From the NCBI GenBank assembly GCA_965224085.1, contig CBDCYI010000011.1:1216001-1280000 (forward strand): DNA of 64,000 nucleotides, written 5' to 3'. The notes under the pieces are model-generated. The model was not told the DNA's origin. It did not search any database and saw nothing but the letters and a program-made list of their open reading frames with translations. The DNA is from Candidatus Marinacidobacterales bacterium. GTDB taxonomy: Bacteria; Acidobacteriota; Vicinamibacteria; Marinacidobacterales; SMYC01. The position numbers were made by a program, and so were the translations under genes. This document shows positions 1 to 24,085 of the stretch, piece by piece. Each line of letters opens with the position of its first letter. The first letter of the stretch is position 1.

Positions 1-1016
1 AGCGACTTCTGTCGAGGGTACGCGTACAGGTCACCCTTGCGGACACCCGTACGGATCTTGTGTGAGGGTAGGGCCAAAGGGCGACTACCCCGCTTGATCT
101 TGTATCCCAAGAACTCGAAGCCGTGTGCAACGTGAACGATACGAGTCTTCTCCACGTTCAAGGTTACACCCAACGTCGTAAGGATCATCCGGGCTTCGGC
201 CAGCACCTTCTGGGCCTCTGCCTTGGTGCAGCATGTCACGACCCAGTCGTCGGCATACCGCGTCAGGCGATAGCCACGATGGCGCATCTCCCGATCAAAC
301 GGAGTCAAAAGGACGTTACTTAAGATCGGTGAGACCACACCGCCTTGCGGTGCACCTTGCTCGGTCGGGAGCCGTCTCCCCTCCGCCATGCAGCCTGCTT
401 TGAGCATGCTGCGAATAAGACGAAGGACGCGACCATCCGACACTCGCTTGGCAACAAGAGCGAGGAGCTTCTCATGGTCCACAGTCCCAAAGAAATTGGA
501 AAGATCCGCATCCACGATCCACTCGTAACCCTCTTCGATCTCTTGCCAGATCTTGCGTAAAGCATCCTTTGTCGATCTTCCTCGTCGATATCCGAAGCTG
601 GCGGCATCGAACACCTGCTCGAAGATCGGTTCCAACCGGTTCTGCAGTGCCTGCTGACACACGCGGTCATAAACGGCCGGAATGCCGAGCGGGCGGAACT
701 TTCCCGGTTGTCCAGCCTTGGGAATGAGTTTCTGCCGAACAGGTAGTGGACGATAGGCATCGGTCTTGAGCTCCTCATGGAGTCGGTTGAGGTGCGCATC
801 AAGCTGCTCCTCAAACTCGTCCAGAGTTTGTCCATCGATGCCACCGGCACCCTTGTTCCGCTTCACTCGGTTCCAGGCCAGCTCCAAGTTCTTCCGCTTG
901 TATATCTTGTCCACCAGAGAGTGGACCTTCCTCTCACCCGTTGGGTTCAACCAGGCCGACAGTTTCCTCGGACGATCACTTCTGGGTCTTTCACTAAAGG
1001 AACTTATCCGCGTCAT
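1..1016 (-). CDS. ltrA: Group II intron reverse transcriptase/maturase (inner intron, left copy; cut by the window edge)
   Basis: Mirror of 4501-5516; contains RPLGIP, PQGG and YADD. Confidence 0.9.
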   Translation of the reverse strand, partial: MTRISSFSERPRSDRPRKLSAWLNPTGERKVHSLVDKIYKRKNLELAWNRVKRNKGAGGIDGQTLDEFEEQLDAHLNRLHEELKTDAYRPLPVRQKLIPKAGQPGKFRPLGIPAVYDRVCQQALQNRLEPIFEQVFDAASFGYRRGRSTKDALRKIWQEIEEGYEWIVDADLSNFFGTVDHEKLLALVAKRVSDGRVLRLIRSMLKAGCMAEGRRLPTEQGAPQGGVVSPILSNVLLTPFDREMRHRGYRLTRYADDWVVTCCTKAEAQKVLAEARMILTTLGVTLNVEKTRIVHVAHGFEFLGYKIKRGSRPLALPSHKIRTGVRKGDLYAYPRQKS

Positions 1017-1639
1017 CGCCCTTACTCGTCTGTCATCCTTGTTGTCACCAACCACCTTTGCCAGCCCCCTTCCCCAGCCCACTCGGCTGCCGATCTCTCG
1101 ATCACACGACTTTCACCGCGCTTCAGGTACTATTGGGCTGTCCGACGACTCACCCGGCTTCACTTCCCATTTCGCTCTCGCTTATAGGGTCGCTTATCCC
1201 GACGCCACTCGGGAACCCAATGAGCCCTCCTGGGGTCACGTCCAGATCTTCCGTACCGTGCCGTCCGCAAACACCTTGATTCGGTGGGTGAATGAGAACG
1301 CCTTCGCCTCCATAGTGCAGGCTCGACCTTGCCCCACCTTTGGCCGACCGGTTCATCAACGGGGTCGCCCCCTCGATTACGGCCCGGTACTGCTCCGCAT
1401 ACCCTTCAGATTCCACCTCGCGGTGGACACCCTGTCCTCCAGTTGTCCAGTGGACAGAACCCGAACTTAGGTACATCCCCTTGGCAGTAGCCATCGTTTC
1501 CAACTTCGTGCCCGTTTAGGGTTCTCCTTATCCGCGTTCCCCGGCCAGCGAGGCGTTACCCCCGCTTTTGGATATGGCGCTCCTCATCCGAGCACCAGAG
1601 GGACTTCAACCTTCCTGATCTGGACGCTGCCCAGCACAC
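1..1639 (-). mobile_element. Inner group II intron, left copy (partial)
   Basis: Mirror of 3878-5516; GTGTG start at 1639 on the minus strand. Confidence 0.9.
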
Positions 1640-2035
1640 ACTATGAATCGGTCCGACTTCCGGCCTCAGCTCAGCACCGCGCTTCGGTTTTCCCTTGCGC
1701 GACGCCCCCATCGGTGACCATTCCGATGGACCCGGCCGGACCTCCTGGGTCCCGAAAGGAACTCTTCGTACGTGATGTGGTCCACGACCCCGGCGGAGCG
1801 TAACCATCTCGCGATAGCGATGGCCCACATGCTGCCTTCATTGACGGGAATCAACTCGGCCTTCCGCGATATTCAGCATTTCGAGGCTACATTCACACAC
1901 CCTGCACGACCCCTGTCTACGCTTCGGACCCCGCGTTGCCACGACGCCCGCAAGACTCGGTCCCGACCTGTCCGCTACGACTTTTGGTCGGATTGGACTT
2001 CCACCCATAGGCTCCTTTCAGTTAGCCCAGCGCAC

Positions 2036-3481
2036 TCCCGCCGGCTGTTGAATTTGGGGTAGCGGCGGCTCCTTGGCCGGCCTAAGAATAGGTCTGCCAA
2101 ACAACCGTCTCCAGAGGGGGACAAGGAGCCACCAATGCCTAGGAAATCAAAGAAGCCAGTAAGAAAGCAAACGCACTCGCCTACGGGCAAGGTAGTTGGC
2201 CAAGCCGGTCAGATACTGCTACCGATGATAGCTGGGATCGCGGCCACGAAGGCGGATCTGACGGAATGGGTGTACGAGCAAGGACTGACAGCTCTGCACC
2301 TACTGCTCAGAGAGGACGCCGAGGAGGTCGCGGGGCTCAAGGGCAAGCACGAGAAGGAGCGAACTCATAACCACTGGGGGAGCACGAACGGAGAGCTGAG
2401 CTTCGGTGGTCGTCGCATCCAAGTGTCGCGACCTCGAGTGCGTTCGAAGTCTGGTGAGGAGGCGTCGCTTCCACACTTCGAAGCCTTCCGCGAAGAAGAC
2501 CCGCTTCCAGAGCGAGTGTTGAATCAGATCTTGGTGGGGGTATCGACCCGAAATTACGAACGGAGTCTGGACAAACCCGCGGCCAAGTTGAAGTCTCGTG
2601 GCACGAGCAAGAGTGCCGCCAGCCGTCACCTCGTAAGCCAGACGACGAAGAAGCTCGAGCAATACCTGTCTCGGCGGCTAGAGGAGTACGAACTTGCGGC
2701 ACTGATGATGGATGGCCTTGAGGTGGCCGGCCAGACCGTCGTCGTAACTCTCGGTATCACAATAGATGGAACGAAGGTGCCCCTGGGTATATGGCTGGGC
2801 TCGACGGAAAACTCTCGGGTGTGCACCGCGATGTTGCAGGACCTTCTCGAGCGAGGCTTGCGCGTCGATGAGTCGATTCTCTGTGTAGTGGACGGAGGCA
2901 AAGGTATCCGCAAGGCACTCGTCGACGTGTTGGGGGATCTCGCGGTCATCCAAAGGTGCCAGATCCATAAACTCCGAAATCTTCGCTCGTACCTTCCCAA
3001 GTCTCGTCACGCCTACGTGCTCCAGACGATGAAGAAAGCCTACAAGTGCAAGAGTGCCGACAAGGCGCGCAAGCGACTTCAGGCATTGGTGTCGTGGCTC
3101 GAGCGAAACAGCCACGATGAAGCTGCCGGAAGCCTTCGCGAAGGGATGGAAGAGACGCTCACGGTCGTGAAGCTCGCTCTGCCCGAGTTACTTCGCCAGT
3201 CTCTTGCCACGACGAACGCCATTGAGAATCTCAACGGAACCATTCGAAGAGTATCGAGAAACGTCAAGCGTTGGAAGAGTCCTTCGATGGTTCGCCGATG
3301 GACCGCTCTCGGCGTCGTCACGGCGGAGAAGAAGTTCCGGCGTATCAAAGGCTATCGCCATATGGGCGCTCTCGTTCACGCGCTTAGAAGCAAACAGAAA
3401 TCTCTTGACAGCGATGAGTTTGCTGCCTAAGAGTATTCACAGGTGCCGCCGCTACCCGACCAAATTCAACAGCCGCCGGGA
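2036..3481 (+). mobile_element. IS256-family element core; both TIRs interrupted by introns, and the outer 7 nt of the right TIR (CATCCCC) are displaced to 7408-7414
   Basis: Imperfect inverted repeats 2036-2069 (tcccgccggctgttgaatttggggtagcggcggc) and 3445-3481 (gccgccgctacccgaccaaattcaacagccgccggga); removing the intron restores ...CGGGA|CATCCCC. Confidence 0.88.
2135..3430 (+). CDS. IS256-family (Mutator-type) DDE transposase
   Basis: 431 aa; GVSTR, MMDG, VVDG, QRCQIH (CxxH) and TTNAIENLN motifs. Confidence 0.95.
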   Translation: MPRKSKKPVRKQTHSPTGKVVGQAGQILLPMIAGIAATKADLTEWVYEQGLTALHLLLREDAEEVAGLKGKHEKERTHNHWGSTNGELSFGGRRIQVSRPRVRSKSGEEASLPHFEAFREEDPLPERVLNQILVGVSTRNYERSLDKPAAKLKSRGTSKSAASRHLVSQTTKKLEQYLSRRLEEYELAALMMDGLEVAGQTVVVTLGITIDGTKVPLGIWLGSTENSRVCTAMLQDLLERGLRVDESILCVVDGGKGIRKALVDVLGDLAVIQRCQIHKLRNLRSYLPKSRHAYVLQTMKKAYKCKSADKARKRLQALVSWLERNSHDEAAGSLREGMEETLTVVKLALPELLRQSLATTNAIENLNGTIRRVSRNVKRWKSPSMVRRWTALGVVTAEKKFRRIKGYRHMGALVHALRSKQKSLDSDEFAA

Positions 3482-3877
3482 GTGCGCTGGGCTAACTGAA
3501 AGGAGCCTATGGGTGGAAGTCCAATCCGACCAAAAGTCGTAGCGGACAGGTCGGGACCGAGTCTTGCGGGCGTCGTGGCAACGCGGGGTCCGAAGCGTAG
3601 ACAGGGGTCGTGCAGGGTGTGTGAATGTAGCCTCGAAATGCTGAATATCGCGGAAGGCCGAGTTGATTCCCGTCAATGAAGGCAGCATGTGGGCCATCGC
3701 TATCGCGAGATGGTTACGCTCCGCCGGGGTCGTGGACCACATCACGTACGAAGAGTTCCTTTCGGGACCCAGGAGGTCCGGCCGGGTCCATCGGAATGGT
3801 CACCGATGGGGGCGTCGCGCAAGGGAAAACCGAAGCGCGGTGCTGAGCTGAGGCCGGAAGTCGGACCGATTCATAGT

Positions 3878-5910
3878 GTGTGCTGGGCAGCGTCCAGATC
3901 AGGAAGGTTGAAGTCCCTCTGGTGCTCGGATGAGGAGCGCCATATCCAAAAGCGGGGGTAACGCCTCGCTGGCCGGGGAACGCGGATAAGGAGAACCCTA
4001 AACGGGCACGAAGTTGGAAACGATGGCTACTGCCAAGGGGATGTACCTAAGTTCGGGTTCTGTCCACTGGACAACTGGAGGACAGGGTGTCCACCGCGAG
4101 GTGGAATCTGAAGGGTATGCGGAGCAGTACCGGGCCGTAATCGAGGGGGCGACCCCGTTGATGAACCGGTCGGCCAAAGGTGGGGCAAGGTCGAGCCTGC
4201 ACTATGGAGGCGAAGGCGTTCTCATTCACCCACCGAATCAAGGTGTTTGCGGACGGCACGGTACGGAAGATCTGGACGTGACCCCAGGAGGGCTCATTGG
4301 GTTCCCGAGTGGCGTCGGGATAAGCGACCCTATAAGCGAGAGCGAAATGGGAAGTGAAGCCGGGTGAGTCGTCGGACAGCCCAATAGTACCTGAAGCGCG
4401 GTGAAAGTCGTGTGATCGAGAGATCGGCAGCCGAGTGGGCTGGGGAAGGGGGCTGGCAAAGGTGGTTGGTGACAACAAGGATGACAGACGAGTAAGGGCG
4501 ATGACGCGGATAAGTTCCTTTAGTGAAAGACCCAGAAGTGATCGTCCGAGGAAACTGTCGGCCTGGTTGAACCCAACGGGTGAGAGGAAGGTCCACTCTC
4601 TGGTGGACAAGATATACAAGCGGAAGAACTTGGAGCTGGCCTGGAACCGAGTGAAGCGGAACAAGGGTGCCGGTGGCATCGATGGACAAACTCTGGACGA
4701 GTTTGAGGAGCAGCTTGATGCGCACCTCAACCGACTCCATGAGGAGCTCAAGACCGATGCCTATCGTCCACTACCTGTTCGGCAGAAACTCATTCCCAAG
4801 GCTGGACAACCGGGAAAGTTCCGCCCGCTCGGCATTCCGGCCGTTTATGACCGCGTGTGTCAGCAGGCACTGCAGAACCGGTTGGAACCGATCTTCGAGC
4901 AGGTGTTCGATGCCGCCAGCTTCGGATATCGACGAGGAAGATCGACAAAGGATGCTTTACGCAAGATCTGGCAAGAGATCGAAGAGGGTTACGAGTGGAT
5001 CGTGGATGCGGATCTTTCCAATTTCTTTGGGACTGTGGACCATGAGAAGCTCCTCGCTCTTGTTGCCAAGCGAGTGTCGGATGGTCGCGTCCTTCGTCTT
5101 ATTCGCAGCATGCTCAAAGCAGGCTGCATGGCGGAGGGGAGACGGCTCCCGACCGAGCAAGGTGCACCGCAAGGCGGTGTGGTCTCACCGATCTTAAGTA
5201 ACGTCCTTTTGACTCCGTTTGATCGGGAGATGCGCCATCGTGGCTATCGCCTGACGCGGTATGCCGACGACTGGGTCGTGACATGCTGCACCAAGGCAGA
5301 GGCCCAGAAGGTGCTGGCCGAAGCCCGGATGATCCTTACGACGTTGGGTGTAACCTTGAACGTGGAGAAGACTCGTATCGTTCACGTTGCACACGGCTTC
5401 GAGTTCTTGGGATACAAGATCAAGCGGGGTAGTCGCCCTTTGGCCCTACCCTCACACAAGATCCGTACGGGTGTCCGCAAGGGTGACCTGTACGCGTACC
5501 CTCGACAGAAGTCGCTCCAGCACTTCAAGGATCAGATTCGGCGACGGACCTGTCGCAAAGCTCCTGTGAGTACGCAGCAGCTAATCGACGAGATCAACCC
5601 GGTTATTCGCGGTTGGGGTCTTTACTATCATAAAGCTCACGTCCGCAAGCTCTTCGCGCGTCTCGATCGTTGGATCCTGCGACGTATCTGGTCGCATCGG
5701 TTCAAACGCTGGCGCTGTCGGGGGTGGAAGCAGCTCCCGGAGCGTCAGCTCTACGATGAGATGGGCCTCGTACGCTTTGTCTTCCTGATTCCTTCCATCA
5801 AGCCGCGATGAATAATCCAACCTTTGTGAAAGCCGGATACGGGAAAACTGTATGTCCGGTTTGAGCGGCGGACGGGGGTCAGCGCTGCGGTGCGCCCCCT
5901 CCGACCCGAC
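3878..5910 (+). mobile_element. Inner group II intron nested in domain III of the outer intron
   Basis: GTGTG at 3878; domain V gaaagccggatacgggaaaactgtatgtccggtttgagcgg and end ccgacccgAC at 5910; its removal restores catagt|actgaggaag; EBS1 ACTATG (4201-4206) pairs with CATAGT. Confidence 0.92.
4501..5811 (+). CDS. ltrA: Group II intron RT/maturase (inner intron), no obvious HNH endonuclease
   Basis: GAGGIDG, RPLGIP, FGYRRGRS, DADLSNFF, PQGG, RYADD, FLGY and RGWGLYY maturase region; start codon uncertain (4435 or 4501). Confidence 0.95.
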   Translation: MTRISSFSERPRSDRPRKLSAWLNPTGERKVHSLVDKIYKRKNLELAWNRVKRNKGAGGIDGQTLDEFEEQLDAHLNRLHEELKTDAYRPLPVRQKLIPKAGQPGKFRPLGIPAVYDRVCQQALQNRLEPIFEQVFDAASFGYRRGRSTKDALRKIWQEIEEGYEWIVDADLSNFFGTVDHEKLLALVAKRVSDGRVLRLIRSMLKAGCMAEGRRLPTEQGAPQGGVVSPILSNVLLTPFDREMRHRGYRLTRYADDWVVTCCTKAEAQKVLAEARMILTTLGVTLNVEKTRIVHVAHGFEFLGYKIKRGSRPLALPSHKIRTGVRKGDLYAYPRQKSLQHFKDQIRRRTCRKAPVSTQQLIDEINPVIRGWGLYYHKAHVRKLFARLDRWILRRIWSHRFKRWRCRGWKQLPERQLYDEMGLVRFVFLIPSIKPR

Positions 5911-5937
5911 ACTGAGGAAGCTATCGAAGGCAACGAG

Positions 5938-7317
5938 ATGGTGGAGGGAAGGGATCGGCCTGGAGGGAACCCACGGGAGAGGGCTAAGGTCCGGACACAG
6001 CGCCGGGTCGCCTTACCGCCAAATCTCACGCGGGTGAACGAAGCAGCGAAGCGAGATAGAAAGGCTCGGTTCACTGCGTTGCTGCATCACGTGGATCACG
6101 AAGCGCTCTATCGAGCGTTTCGTCGGTTGAAGCGCAGCGCAAGCGCTGGTGTCGACGGAGAGACTGTCGCCGATTACGAGAAGAACTTCGTGAGCAACAT
6201 CAAGGATCTTTGCTCGCGGGTACACGCCGGTCGCTACCGACCACTACCGGTGCGGCGCGTGTACATTCCTAAGTCGGATGGCGGAAAGCGCCCTCTTGGC
6301 ATCCCCGCACTGGAAGACAAGATTGTCCAAGGAGCGGTAGCCGAGGTTTTGAGCGCCGTCTACGAAGTCGATTTCATCGGGTTCTCGTACGGGTTTCGGC
6401 CCGGACGGAGCCCGCACCAAGCGTTGCACGCGCTCCACACCGCGCTCATGACGCAACGCGTGAACTGGGTTCTCGACGCGGACATCCGCAAGTTCTTCGA
6501 CTCGGTGGACCACGAGTGGTTGATGCGGATGCTTTCGCACCGGGTCGCCGACAAACGCATCCTTCGACTCATCCGTCAGTGGTTGCGAGCCGGCGTACTG
6601 GAGAAAGGAGAGTGGAGCGAGACAACTGAAGGGACACCGCAAGGGGCAGGTGTGAGCCCGCTCTTGGCTAACGTCTTTCTGCACTACGTTCTAGATCTGT
6701 GGGTTCATCGATGGCGCCGGCTCGAAGCACAAGGCCGTATTTCCATCGTGCGATACGCTGACGACTTCGTCATGGGCTTCCAGCATCGGACCGATGCCAG
6801 CAGGATGATGAGAGCGCTCAAGGAGCGACTAGCCCGATTCGGGCTTGCGCTCCACGAGAACAAGACCCGTTTGCTCGAGTTCGGGAGATTACCTTCCTTG
6901 TCACGCGAGCAACGGGGCCTTCGGCGGTGTGCGACGTTCGCTTTCCTGGGTTTCACTCATTATTGTGGGAGAACCCGCGATGGCCGTTTCGTCGTGAAGC
7001 GCAAAACGCAGAGCCAGCGGCTACGAGCCAAACTCAAGTCGCTACGGCTTCGCGCGAAGCAACGTATGCATGCTCCAGTCGCCGTCCAGCATCGCTGGCT
7101 TTGCCAGGTGCTGCGCGGTCACTACGCGTACTACGGACTTCCCAGCAACATCCGCTCTCTCCAATCCTTTTCTGAGGAGGTGACACGGTTGTGGTTTCGA
7201 AGCCTTCGTCGGCGGAGTCAGCGCCGAATGACCTGGCCTCGTTTTCACTTGTTGTTGGAGCGCTTTCCCCTACCAGTCCCTCACCTCACTCCGTCCCGAC
7301 TACCTTGCCTTGTCTGA
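5938..7317 (+). CDS. ltrA: Group II intron RT/maturase (outer intron), no obvious HNH endonuclease
   Basis: RFTALLHHV, RPLGIP, YGFRPGRS, DADIRKFFD, PQGAG, RYADD, FLGFTH and GHYAYYG; the track start 5890 lies in the inner intron, so the true start is at or after 5938. Confidence 0.95.
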   Translation: MVEGRDRPGGNPRERAKVRTQRRVALPPNLTRVNEAAKRDRKARFTALLHHVDHEALYRAFRRLKRSASAGVDGETVADYEKNFVSNIKDLCSRVHAGRYRPLPVRRVYIPKSDGGKRPLGIPALEDKIVQGAVAEVLSAVYEVDFIGFSYGFRPGRSPHQALHALHTALMTQRVNWVLDADIRKFFDSVDHEWLMRMLSHRVADKRILRLIRQWLRAGVLEKGEWSETTEGTPQGAGVSPLLANVFLHYVLDLWVHRWRRLEAQGRISIVRYADDFVMGFQHRTDASRMMRALKERLARFGLALHENKTRLLEFGRLPSLSREQRGLRRCATFAFLGFTHYCGRTRDGRFVVKRKTQSQRLRAKLKSLRLRAKQRMHAPVAVQHRWLCQVLRGHYAYYGLPSNIRSLQSFSEEVTRLWFRSLRRRSQRRMTWPRFHLLLERFPLPVPHLTPSRLPCLV

Positions 7318-7414
7318 TTTCGGGTATACCTTCAGGAGGAGCCGAGTGCGGGAAAGCCGCACGCTCGGATCTGTGAGGGCGAAAGCCGAATGGCTGAGCT
7401 ACTCGACCATCCCC

Positions 7415-7821
7415 CTCACGGAAGCCGAGGCGGTGAACTTCCGCGAATACCTGTCGCGGGGTGGGTTCGCGATTTTCGATGACTTCGACGGCGAATGGGA
7501 TTGGCAGGTCTTCGAAGCGAACATGGCCGAGGTGCTCCCTGGCCGGCACTTCGAGCTCTTGGAAGAATCCGATCCCATCTACCAGAGTTTCTTCTCCATC
7601 GAGGATCTCGACGTCATCACGCACCCTATGGGTCACGCCTATCCGCCGATGTTTTTCGGCATCCGCGACGACGCCGGCCGCCTGCAGGTCGTGGCCAACT
7701 TCAACAACGACATCGGGGACTACTGGGAGTGGTCGGACCAGGGTTGTGGTACCCGATTGACTTGTCGAACGAAGGCTACAAGCTCGGGGTCAACTACGTG
7801 ATTTACGCACTCACGCATTAG
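7415..7821 (+). pseudogene. 3' half of a DUF4159-like gene disrupted by the IS256/twintron insertion
   Basis: REYLSRGGFAIFDDF...NNDIGDYWEWSD then (frameshift near 7745) SNEGYKLGVNYVIYALTH; begins right after the restored IS end. Confidence 0.75.
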
Positions 7822-22929: not shown

Positions 22930-24085
22930 GTGCGTCCAGCTAAGGCTGGCGTGTTCAGTGGGAGTCAGTCCCACCGGGGCAAGAGCCAGAAGCCCCGTAG
23001 CTTGGATAGCAGGAAGGAGGGAAACCGAATGACCTGAAGCCTATCGACAAAGCCATCGTAAGGGATGGTGAGCGAGTCATCGGGCCGTAACGCAAGTGAA
23101 CGCAGAAGTAGCCTCGAAAGAAGTCACTCCGGAGGCCGAGCCCTTGTTTGGGGGGTGAAGGCAGCATGGGACGTCGCAGATTGGCCGAAGCGTCCTCGCA
23201 CTCCGGCGGGGTCGCAGCGACAGCACGGTGACAAGGACACGCTAAGCAACTGGAGAGGCCCTCCTCGTCCCATAGGGAGACCCGTGAAGCAACGCCGTCA
23301 GTATAACCGGCATCCCCCGGGAAATCGGACGGCAGGCGAGAGGGAGTCGGAGGGGTCCATATTAGCGATGAAGCGGAGTAATGCCCGTGGAGCGAAGGGG
23401 CCCTACTGTACAAGGAATCTTTTGACCAATGGGAGGCAGAGGCGATGACACAAGCGCCGATAGAGCTGCAAGACCTGAGACGAAAGATATATGCGAAGGC
23501 GAAGGCGGATAAGCGCCATCGCTTTTGGGGCATCTACGTCCACATCTGCAAGGAGGAAACGCTTCGCAAAGCCTACGACCGGGCAAAGGCCAACGGCGGC
23601 GCCCCGGGAATTGATGGGGTGACGTTCGAGTCCATTGAGGCCTCGGACGGAGGGGTTGCGAGTTTCGTCGAGCAGTTACGGGACGAGTTGGTGAGAGACG
23701 ACTACCGGCCCCAGCCGAATCGGCGCAAGGAGATACCCAAGGACGGCGGCAAGAAAGTCCGCGTGCTGGGTATTCCCACGATCCGAGACCGGGTGGTGCA
23801 AGGTGCCGTCAAGCTCATCTTGGAGCCCATTTTCGAGGCAGACTTCCAACCAGGCTCGTTTGGGTACCGGCTTAATCGGAGTGCTCATCATACGATACAT
23901 CGGGTCGTGGTGAGCATCACTCAGGAAAAGACACGCGTCATCGATTTGGATTTGAAAAGCTACTTCGACAATGTCAGGCACCACATATTGATGGAGAAAG
24001 TGGCTCGTAGGGTCAGCGACCGACAAGTGCTTCGCCTGTTGAAGTTGATGCTCAAAGCGAATGGCAAGAAAGGAGTTCCTCAGGG
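22930..24085 (+). mobile_element. Third group II intron, 3'-truncated, antisense to the kinase gene
   Basis: GTGCG at 22930; gtagcctcgaaa and gggagtcggaggggtcc domain I-III motifs; no domain V/VI. Confidence 0.88.
23445..24085 (+). pseudogene. ltrA: Group II intron RT, truncated at PQG (no YADD)
   Basis: GAPGIDG, RVLGIPTIRDRVVQ, DLDLKSYFD, GVPQG, then unrelated sequence. Confidence 0.9.

Follow-up and report, generated by a model that had tools for sequence, protein, structure and literature searches.

How does an insertion sequence (IS) come to have both of its ends split by one and the same intron? The question is raised by the first 7,414 positions of a window of 64,000 nucleotides (C11:1216001-1280000) from a Candidatus Marinacidobacterales bacterium (host genome, G000; assembly of 6.87 Mb in 12 contigs, those cited here being C4, C5, C7, C9 and C11). 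An IS of the IS256 family lies there with both terminal inverted repeats (TIRs) split by one group II intron that has another intron nested inside it. This composite was confirmed, as was its original prediction as a three-layer unit of about 9.3 kb with inverted arms of several kb: the whole unit has 9,312 bp, made up of the IS (1,460 bp) and, at each end, of an outer intron (1,893 nt) holding an inner intron (2,033 nt). Very probably the IS was inserted first, the outer intron then retrohomed into both TIRs, and the second intron entered the first.

Anatomy of the composite

The DNA to the left of the window is readable, and negative numbers denote letters left of window position 1. The parts of the unit and of its flanks are as follows; the first three lie left of the window, within C11:1214096-1216000.

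-1905 to -1898: left copy of the target-site duplication (TSD), CTCACGGA
-1897 to -1891: left TIR tip, GGGGATG
-1890 to -394, minus strand: left arm, 3' part of the outer intron
1 to 1639 and on to -393, minus strand: left arm, inner intron; mirror of 3878-5910
1640 to 2035, minus strand: left arm, 5' part of the outer intron (domains D1-D3); Rfam RF02005 at 1778-2001, 140.9 bits; GTGCG leftward from 2035; mirror identity
2036 to 2069, plus strand: inner part of the left TIR, TCCCGCCGGCTGTTGAATTTGG..., severed from its 7-bp tip; compare the intact left ends in relatives
2135 to 3430, plus strand: IS256-family transposase, 431 aa, frame intact (PF00872, NF033543)
3445 to 3481, plus strand: inner part of the right TIR, ending ...CAGCCGCCGGGA; 5' exon of the outer intron
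3482 to 3877, plus strand: 5' part of the outer intron (D1-D3 and the start of D4); RF02005 at 3516-3739, again 140.9 bits; joined to 5911-7407 in solo copies
3640 to 3643, plus strand: candidate exon-binding site 2 (EBS2), GCUG, in a D1 internal loop; read by eye from the alignment, tentative
3668 to 3672, plus strand: EBS1, UCCCG, in a D1 hairpin loop; pairs with CGGGA, with covariation
3878 to 5910, plus strand: inner group II intron, 2,033 nt, GTGTG...CGAC; boundaries from outer-intron copies with and without it
4435 to 5811, plus strand: reverse transcriptase (RT)/maturase of the inner intron (RVT_1 and GIIM, TIGR04416); the true start may be further in
5911 to 7407, plus strand: 3' part of the outer intron (remaining D4, gene of the intron-encoded protein (IEP), D5, D6); RF00029 at 7337-7407
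5938 to 7317, plus strand: RT/maturase of the outer intron, 459 aa (RVT_1, TIGR04416)
7408 to 7414, plus strand: displaced right tip CATCCCC, the 3' exon of the outer intron; adjoins CGGGA in intact ends
7415 to 7422, plus strand: right TSD copy CTCACGGA, 8 bp; partner at -1905 to -1898
7424 to 7801, plus strand: 3' half of a DUF4159 gene (PF13709 positions 68-191); frame continuous with the left half

The transposase was assigned to the IS256 family by NCBIfam NF033543 (224.9 bits; cut-off 150) and matched PF00872 (E 4.5e-42); its frame is intact in all four full IS copies of the host genome. Members of this family typically have imperfect TIRs and a target duplication of 8-9 bp. Here the IS core occupies 2036-3481, the TIRs are imperfect and of about 41-44 bp including the tip, and the duplications are of 8 bp: CTCACGGA on both sides of this unit, CCCGGCAG around a copy at C4:252499-259783; 8 bp also in relatives. 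Both TIRs are split 7 bases inside the tip, between CGGGA and CATCCCC. As had been proposed from the letters of the window, the TIRs flanking the transposase stop at CGGGA and GTGCG intron starts follow at 3482 (plus strand) and 2035 (minus strand); on the right, CATCCCC comes directly after the last intron base (7407), ahead of the disrupted DUF4159 gene.

Within the window an inverted repeat is seen (1-2057 against 3460-5516) that extends beyond the left window edge. The complete arms run from -1897 to 2057 and from 3460 to 7414, position 2057-n pairing with 3460+n across 3,955 positions; the sole mismatch, at n = 16, is in the IS repeat, outside the intron, and the intron portions of the two arms are identical across 3,926 nt. 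The left flank was found to hold all four parts that had been foretold for it: the outer intron has its 3' end there, the tip GGGGATG adjoins it, and further out come the 8-bp duplication and the missing 5' half of DUF4159. The sequence at the left end is ...GGGGC CTCACGGA/GGGGATG/GTCGAGTAGCT, the last part beginning GTCGAG; the right end, AGCTACTCGAC/CATCCCC/CTCACGGA AGCCG, with the first part ending CTCGAC, is the mirror of the left. After in silico removal of the unit and one copy of the duplication, a single open DUF4159 frame across the junction was obtained, the halves of which match PF13709 at profile positions 2-64 and 68-191.

Arms that are identical over such a length in a repeat-rich genome could be taken for an assembly artefact, the 3.9-kb inverted arms being a fold-back or a chimeric repeat join; moreover, no arm-spanning contig was found among those listed, the comparison being made from contigs and not from raw reads. 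A fold-back would give mirror-image flanks, but the outer flanks differ, share the 8-bp duplication and rejoin as one DUF4159 frame. Also against an artefact are the asymmetric IS core, with its distinct left and right inner repeats, the second copy at C4:252499-259783, which has a duplication of its own and unequal arms, and the same both-ends architecture in an unrelated metagenome-assembled genome (MAG; locus L011). An artefact is regarded as scarcely credible.

The limits of the two introns were taken from uninterrupted copies (blastn against the host genome): outer, 3482-3877 plus 5911-7407; inner, 3878-5910. In a solo outer intron at C11:193420-195338, 3482-3877 is joined directly to 5911-7407. 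The inner intron sits in D4 of the outer one, 27 nt before the ATG of the outer IEP (5938). Among the 11 outer copies with a visible insertion site, six contain the inner intron and five do not, the site being always the same. In addition, a contig joint skipping exactly 2,033 nt was found in each of the four public sequencing runs checked (Logan contigs). The nesting is proved by the uninterrupted outer copies together with this joint; the skipping form is also present as genomic DNA, and the joint therefore says nothing on splicing. RF00029 (D5/D6) was matched in the outer intron with 53.2 bits and in the inner one (5828-5910) with 41.3 bits (gathering score 40); D1 of the inner intron gave a weak match to RF02001 (27.9 bits; threshold 32). 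With the group II RT/maturase model TIGR04416 (cut-off 300), 365.4 bits were obtained for the outer and 393 bits for the inner IEP; YADD is present in both. No endonuclease domain was found by Pfam in either protein (459 and 458 aa; RVT_1 only, or RVT_1 and GIIM).

In Methanosarcina, introns home into the open reading frames (ORFs) of related introns, whereas the inner intron here lies ahead of the RT start. All seven copies of the inner intron in the host genome lie inside other group II introns; the seventh (C9:853579-855616) is inside an intron of a third kind (RF02003 D1 at L003 1177-1313), an uninterrupted copy of which is found at C4:1590845-1591737. The window itself has, at 22956-23095 (plus strand), D1 of a group II intron of a third type (RF02003, 118.3 bits; no D5 nearby at the gathering score), about 72-74% identical to the intron hosting the seventh inner copy (C9:853167 onwards).

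Occupied and intact IS ends

Mapping of the copies over the host genome gave the following picture: every 5' end of the outer intron stands after the IS repeat, ...TTCAACA.C.G.CGGGA (11/11), and every 3' end before CATCCCC and then unrelated flanks (12/12). The original prediction of a TIR specialist with two targets per IS agrees with this census; in three elements both ends of one IS are invaded. Altogether 15 IS ends were seen. Twelve are or were invaded, one of them a left end that keeps only GTGC of the intron; the three intact ends, reading ...CGGGACATCCCC, are at C4:895336, C7:315 and, as a 20-nt remnant, C9:533903. A loose end of only 8 letters in run X7, CGGGGATG, located ahead of the left end of the IS, is compatible with an intact end; a 188-nt contig in runs X1 and X2 departs from the reference after the duplication (L001 6102).

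The left and right arms of the doubly invaded elements are twintron/twintron in this unit, twintron/simple at C4:252499-259783 and simple/twintron at C5:2148284-2155234; a further element (C4:891077-895340) has a truncated twintron at one end and an intact other end. Arm content thus differs among the IS copies, which points to separate invasions and not to transposition of a composite. If the 9.3-kb composite were itself mobile, with the introns as cargo of the IS, tips and an 8-bp duplication would be expected around the whole, and this is what is seen; however, no two host composites agree in arm content, the right end of one is intact, solo intron copies retain no more of the repeat than 17 nt, and in relatives the same IS is found intron-free at many places. 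Mobility of the composite is accordingly judged very unlikely.

Those relatives were 40 related genomes; the unpublished G027 is among them and contributes to negative tallies only. The IS right end was matched in 17 of the 40, in 11 of these at 93-99% identity and mostly at 14 or more listed places per genome, and all right-end matches in these 11 stop at the last base before the intron. From the 11 genomes, 83 IS ends at 51 loci were typed: tip CATCCCC, 72; CATCTCC, 8 (80/83 intact); right ends, AGCGGCCGGGA in 50/51; left ends, ATCCGGCGGGA in 30/32; 8-bp duplications are visible around the copies. By these uninvaded ends the intact repeat sequence and the point of entry of the intron are established. 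Uninvaded left and right repeats differ canonically at positions -10, -8 and -6 (T,C,G against G,G,C). No complete outer intron was found among the 40 relatives, and in 39 no trace of it; the exception, a genome from the genus of the host, retains a 3' fragment of 546 nt with the tip, cut by another IS. Compared with the same 40 genomes, the 5' part of the inner intron was found in the host genome only. The IS copy number (at least 14 listed places in intron-free relatives against six right ends here) was considered as evidence of immobilisation and not used: the listed places are lower bounds and no true copy numbers, and some intron-free relatives also list few.

Exact 12-mers CGGGACATCCCC outside the IS are uninvaded at C5:319362 and C11:835505, and the intron therefore reads more than those 12 bases. 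A look-alike of the target with one mismatch, ...GGTCGGCCGCGACATCCCCGTAAGTCG, is uninvaded in at least 12 copies of another repeat (positions include C4:467012, 577513, 1210931, 1726022, 1738386 and 1809249; C11:400495, 403908, 529448, 1074321 and 1127969). The variation at -6/-8/-10 was considered as an escape from the intron and rejected: the variant at both uninvaded ends occurs at invaded ends as well, and in relatives the variation is a plain difference between left and right.

Some neighbouring features were recorded as well. The solo outer intron in L002 (C11:192401-196400; 874-1029) that keeps 17 nt of the IS repeat is located where a ribosomal RNA (rRNA) operon ends, 38 nt downstream of a 5S gene. 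An element of about 1.09 kb (at least 60 copies in the genome) and one of about 0.9 kb (at least 20 copies), e.g., C9:389670-391169 and C5:682237-683736, interrupt several IS256/intron copies and explain most of the truncated ones. At about C11:1,200,000, some 14 kb left of the unit, the GC skew changes sign and the cumulative skew peaks, as at a replication terminus; the invaded IS lies just beyond.

Target site and intron lineage

Pairing of the intron with its target was examined in 19 related introns aligned with their 5' exons, the loop at 3668-3672 being compared with the last five exon bases (here intron-binding site 1 (IBS1), CGGGA, 3477-3481). The loop sequence TTCCCG, to which complementarity with CGGGA had been ascribed, is indeed present at 3667-3672, and 3668-3672 covaries with the 5' exon over the 19 introns: five of five pairs in 13 introns, four of five in four, and in the remaining two (L033, L034) a fit by eye only after a shift of one column. 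Compensatory changes of the whole motif were found: CGCGA/UCGCG, UUGGC/GCCAA and CCGGC/GCUGG, with complete changes in L010, L011, L012 and L023; EBS1 had thus been correctly identified from the window. A second pairing, tentatively of 4 bp, may exist between the candidate EBS2 and a candidate IBS2, CAGC at 3470-3473 (-12 to -9). Its proposed partners show some covariation, with GCUG/CAGC here, GUAG/CUAC in L009 and L015 and GUGG/CCAC in the Bradyrhizobium group; GCUG fits CAGC, but the repeat also occurs with CATC, which it does not fit, and this form is likewise invaded.

In a scan of one genome per species, 79 related loci (L0xx) were collected, with IEPs 49-77% identical to that of the outer intron. 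Directly upstream of the intron, an IS256-type transposase ORF was found in 12 of the 79, in both orientations. Exon types were judged in the closer loci (IEP identity of at least 58%), and three groups were distinguished.

Group a: 5' exon ...TTCAAC....GGGA; the intron studied here, L009, L015 and L021
Group b: 5' exon ...CTACACCAC....GGGA; 3' exon CACGAYC, divergence after exactly 7 nt; 11 of 14 Bradyrhizobium/Sinorhizobium-group loci
Group c: 5' exon ...TTCCAC....TCGCGA; 3' exon CGGCACC; three loci

At L017 (Bradyrhizobium sp. RP6) the left IS end is intact (...GGTCGTG/TCCCCGG), the right end is invaded (...CAGGGA/intron/CACGATC), and an 8-bp duplication, TCCAAGCG, is present; at L011 (the MAG unrelated to the host) inverted intron copies stand in both IS ends, as here. 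When 81 IEP rows were put into a quick IQ-TREE tree, groups a-c (20 rows) fell together with L010 and L022 in one set of 22 rows (Shimodaira-Hasegawa-like approximate likelihood ratio test (SH-aLRT), 96; the groups are defined by target). Judged by this tree, the introns of Bradyrhizobium, Sinorhizobium and several MAG phyla that stand at a distance of 7 nt from IS256-type tips form one clade. More distant relatives by IEP (49-58% identity) have other targets, and the specialisation on IS tips therefore stops short of them.

A sister group (L035 and L036 from one MAG, L028, L031; IEP about 61-63% identical) has a different, short target: what its copies have in common is limited to about 18 nt on the 5' side (CTATTGGATGAAATCTGA) and 5 nt on the 3' side (CGATT) of the intron. 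In distant relatives, stacked or head-to-tail introns were seen (L048 near 4429; L076 4464-6303); there, either the next GTGCGCCGGG intron start is reached after only 9 nt of 3' exon, or the intron is succeeded by another copy.

The outer IEP is 67% identical to that of an intron common on Sinorhizobium plasmids, the pRmeGR4b copy of which has a broken RT frame. S.me.I4 is described, in the part of PMC5894124 that deals with it, as a disrupted class E intron on pRmeGR4b. By this comparison the outer intron is probably of bacterial class E.

History, precedents and consequences

The structure of the unit, the history of its insertions, the site specificity, the EBS1 pairing and the habit of the clade are taken as shown, and the events behind the present unit are very probably the following. 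A 1,460-bp IS256-family IS entered the DUF4159 gene with formation of the 8-bp duplication. The endonuclease-less outer intron then retrohomed into each TIR, on the strand reading outward from the interior of the IS, between CGGGA and the final 7 bp CATCCCC; the intron RNA chose the site by means of EBS1 (UCCCG against CGGGA), of an EBS2 that probably pairs over 4 bp some 9-12 nt further upstream, and of a C that opens the 3' exon. Finally, the 2,033-nt second intron homed into domain IV of the first, ahead of the start codon of its RT. Because the TIRs are one sequence in opposite orientations, each IS offers two sites, one per replication strand. From the missing endonuclease domain and the analogy with RmInt1 and RmInt2 (PMC4615759, in the passages on these introns), retrohoming would be primed at replication forks.

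The symmetry of the unit may be due only in part to retrohoming, the second arm having received the intron, or the inner intron, by gene conversion within the element. The bases at -6, -8 and -10 are suggestive here: in all three doubly invaded elements the two ends differ at none or one of these three markers (canonically at three), and the six singly invaded or truncated elements have canonical markers. Swapped or hybrid ends were found in 4 of the 11 invaded ends typed in the host genome against none of 85 uninvaded ones (Fisher p = 1e-4, kin not being independent). For the inner intron, the outer one would provide long homology on both sides. For the outer intron, on the other hand, the homology towards the tip would amount to no more than 7 bp; unequal arms (twintron against simple) persist in two copies, which makes conversion incomplete; and the single invaded ends and the clade-wide pattern require retrohoming regardless. 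Conversion as a source of the second arm is held to be rather unlikely. The homogenised repeats themselves are most simply read as the product of gene conversion between the inverted intron arms that would have run into the repeat; alternatively, the 5' exon may have been co-converted as the intron moved from end to end.

At each invaded end the inner repeat is now 1.9-3.9 kb away from its tip. According to the pertinent part of PMC3299598, IS256-family elements transpose via a circle with abutted ends. It is plausible that the separation of the tips stops transposition of the IS at the DNA level.

Insertion of the IS followed by retrohoming and nesting has several points against it. For neither intron is there direct evidence of splicing or movement: in the RNA run X11 the contigs have a depth of 1-24 and the sole joint is also present as DNA, as is the ligated-exon sequence CGGGA-CATCCCC (in intact ends). 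Loss of IS mobility is something we infer. Perfect identity of the arms could partly reflect polishing of the assembly. Two full IS ends are uninvaded even though introns have entered the same target variant at other ends. The eight intron copies assignable by GC skew, which is clear on C11 and C4 only, give no sign of the bias towards the lagging-strand template expected of an RmInt2-like strategy: four are co-directional and four head-on. EBS2 was assigned by eye, and L021 does not fit; the assignment to class E is drawn from the 67% identity to an intron of Sinorhizobium that agrees with a description in the literature, and not from a reference phylogeny.

The closest precedent is RmInt2 of Sinorhizobium meliloti GR4, a class D intron, all seven copies of which are in inverted repeats of ISRm17 (PMC4615759 and PMC5894124, passages on RmInt2), an IS of the ISNCY family (stated in PMC10194956, in its part on this IS). 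In the relevant part of PMC4615759 its authors argue that the repeats double the targets and place one of them on the lagging-strand template, and retrohoming was shown in vivo. The strategy of homing to TIRs with two targets per IS has thus been published once, going by these passages. Shared with RmInt2 are the endonuclease-less IEP, the location of all copies in the inverted repeats of one IS, and two sites on opposite replication strands; RmInt2 also tolerates a 4-bp EBS2/IBS2 pairing (same part of PMC4615759), similar to the 4-bp candidate here. In contrast, as far as the passages on it go, RmInt2 is of class D, has an ISNCY host, is confined to one strain and is reported with no nested intron, whereas here a clade spanning phyla resides in IS256-type ends. 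Among Sinorhizobium introns, the closest relative of the outer intron is another one than RmInt1 or RmInt2, with about 451 aa of IEP. This Sinorhizobium/Bradyrhizobium intron, which fits S.me.I4, has the same RNA architecture and the site ...CTACACCAC....GGGA/intron/CACGAYC, 7 nt from an IS256-type tip; it differs in its start (GTACG; here GTGCG) and in its host, another member of the IS256 family, and many copies keep about 20-26 nt of the repeat.

Twintrons and homing of introns into introns are known from Methanosarcina acetivorans, Thermosynechococcus and Trichodesmium; following the part of PMC4424553 devoted to them, homing is site-specific and the nests lie outside housekeeping genes, as here. 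Unlike these, the present nest occupies both ends of a DNA transposon. Its inner site is in domain IV before the start of the host RT. RmInt1 in ISRm2011-2 and class C introns at attC sites or terminators likewise live in mobile elements or recombination sites and may restrain the host element (PMC5894124, PMC4424553, in the sections concerned). RmInt1 is inside the transposase gene, the outer intron here inside a terminal repeat; class C introns recognise a hairpin in the DNA, with an IBS1 of 3-4 bp, whereas here the target is linear and is read with a 5-bp EBS1 and EBS2. Text searches of the literature found no account of group II introns at the ends of IS256-family elements. The novelty lies in the lineage of the intron (probably class E), in the family of its IS, in the constant 7-bp position and in the homogenised left/right markers of the doubly invaded copies.

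Taken as one statement, the following is offered tentatively, at somewhat less than even chances: a class-E-like, endonuclease-less clade in at least six phyla would be fixed at 7 bp inside the tips of IS256-family elements and act as self-spreading disablers of these IS, with conversion of the repeats driven by the intron arms and with a second intron that lives only in introns. The introns would disable the IS because their site parts the transposase-side repeat from the cleaved end.

The finding means that retroelements can specialise on the very sequences that a DNA transposon needs to move, here as a parasite of a parasite of a parasite; the same 7-bp position, occupied in three different IS256-type repeats of distant bacteria, makes this more than a one-off. 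The homogenised markers are a rare footprint, in a natural genome, of what would be exchange between inverted intron copies. The element would be a natural, retargetable, RNA-guided one aimed at transposon ends, and hence a lead for gene targeting. If split repeats stop transposition, the introns would be a natural brake on an IS family that also matters in staphylococci and enterococci.

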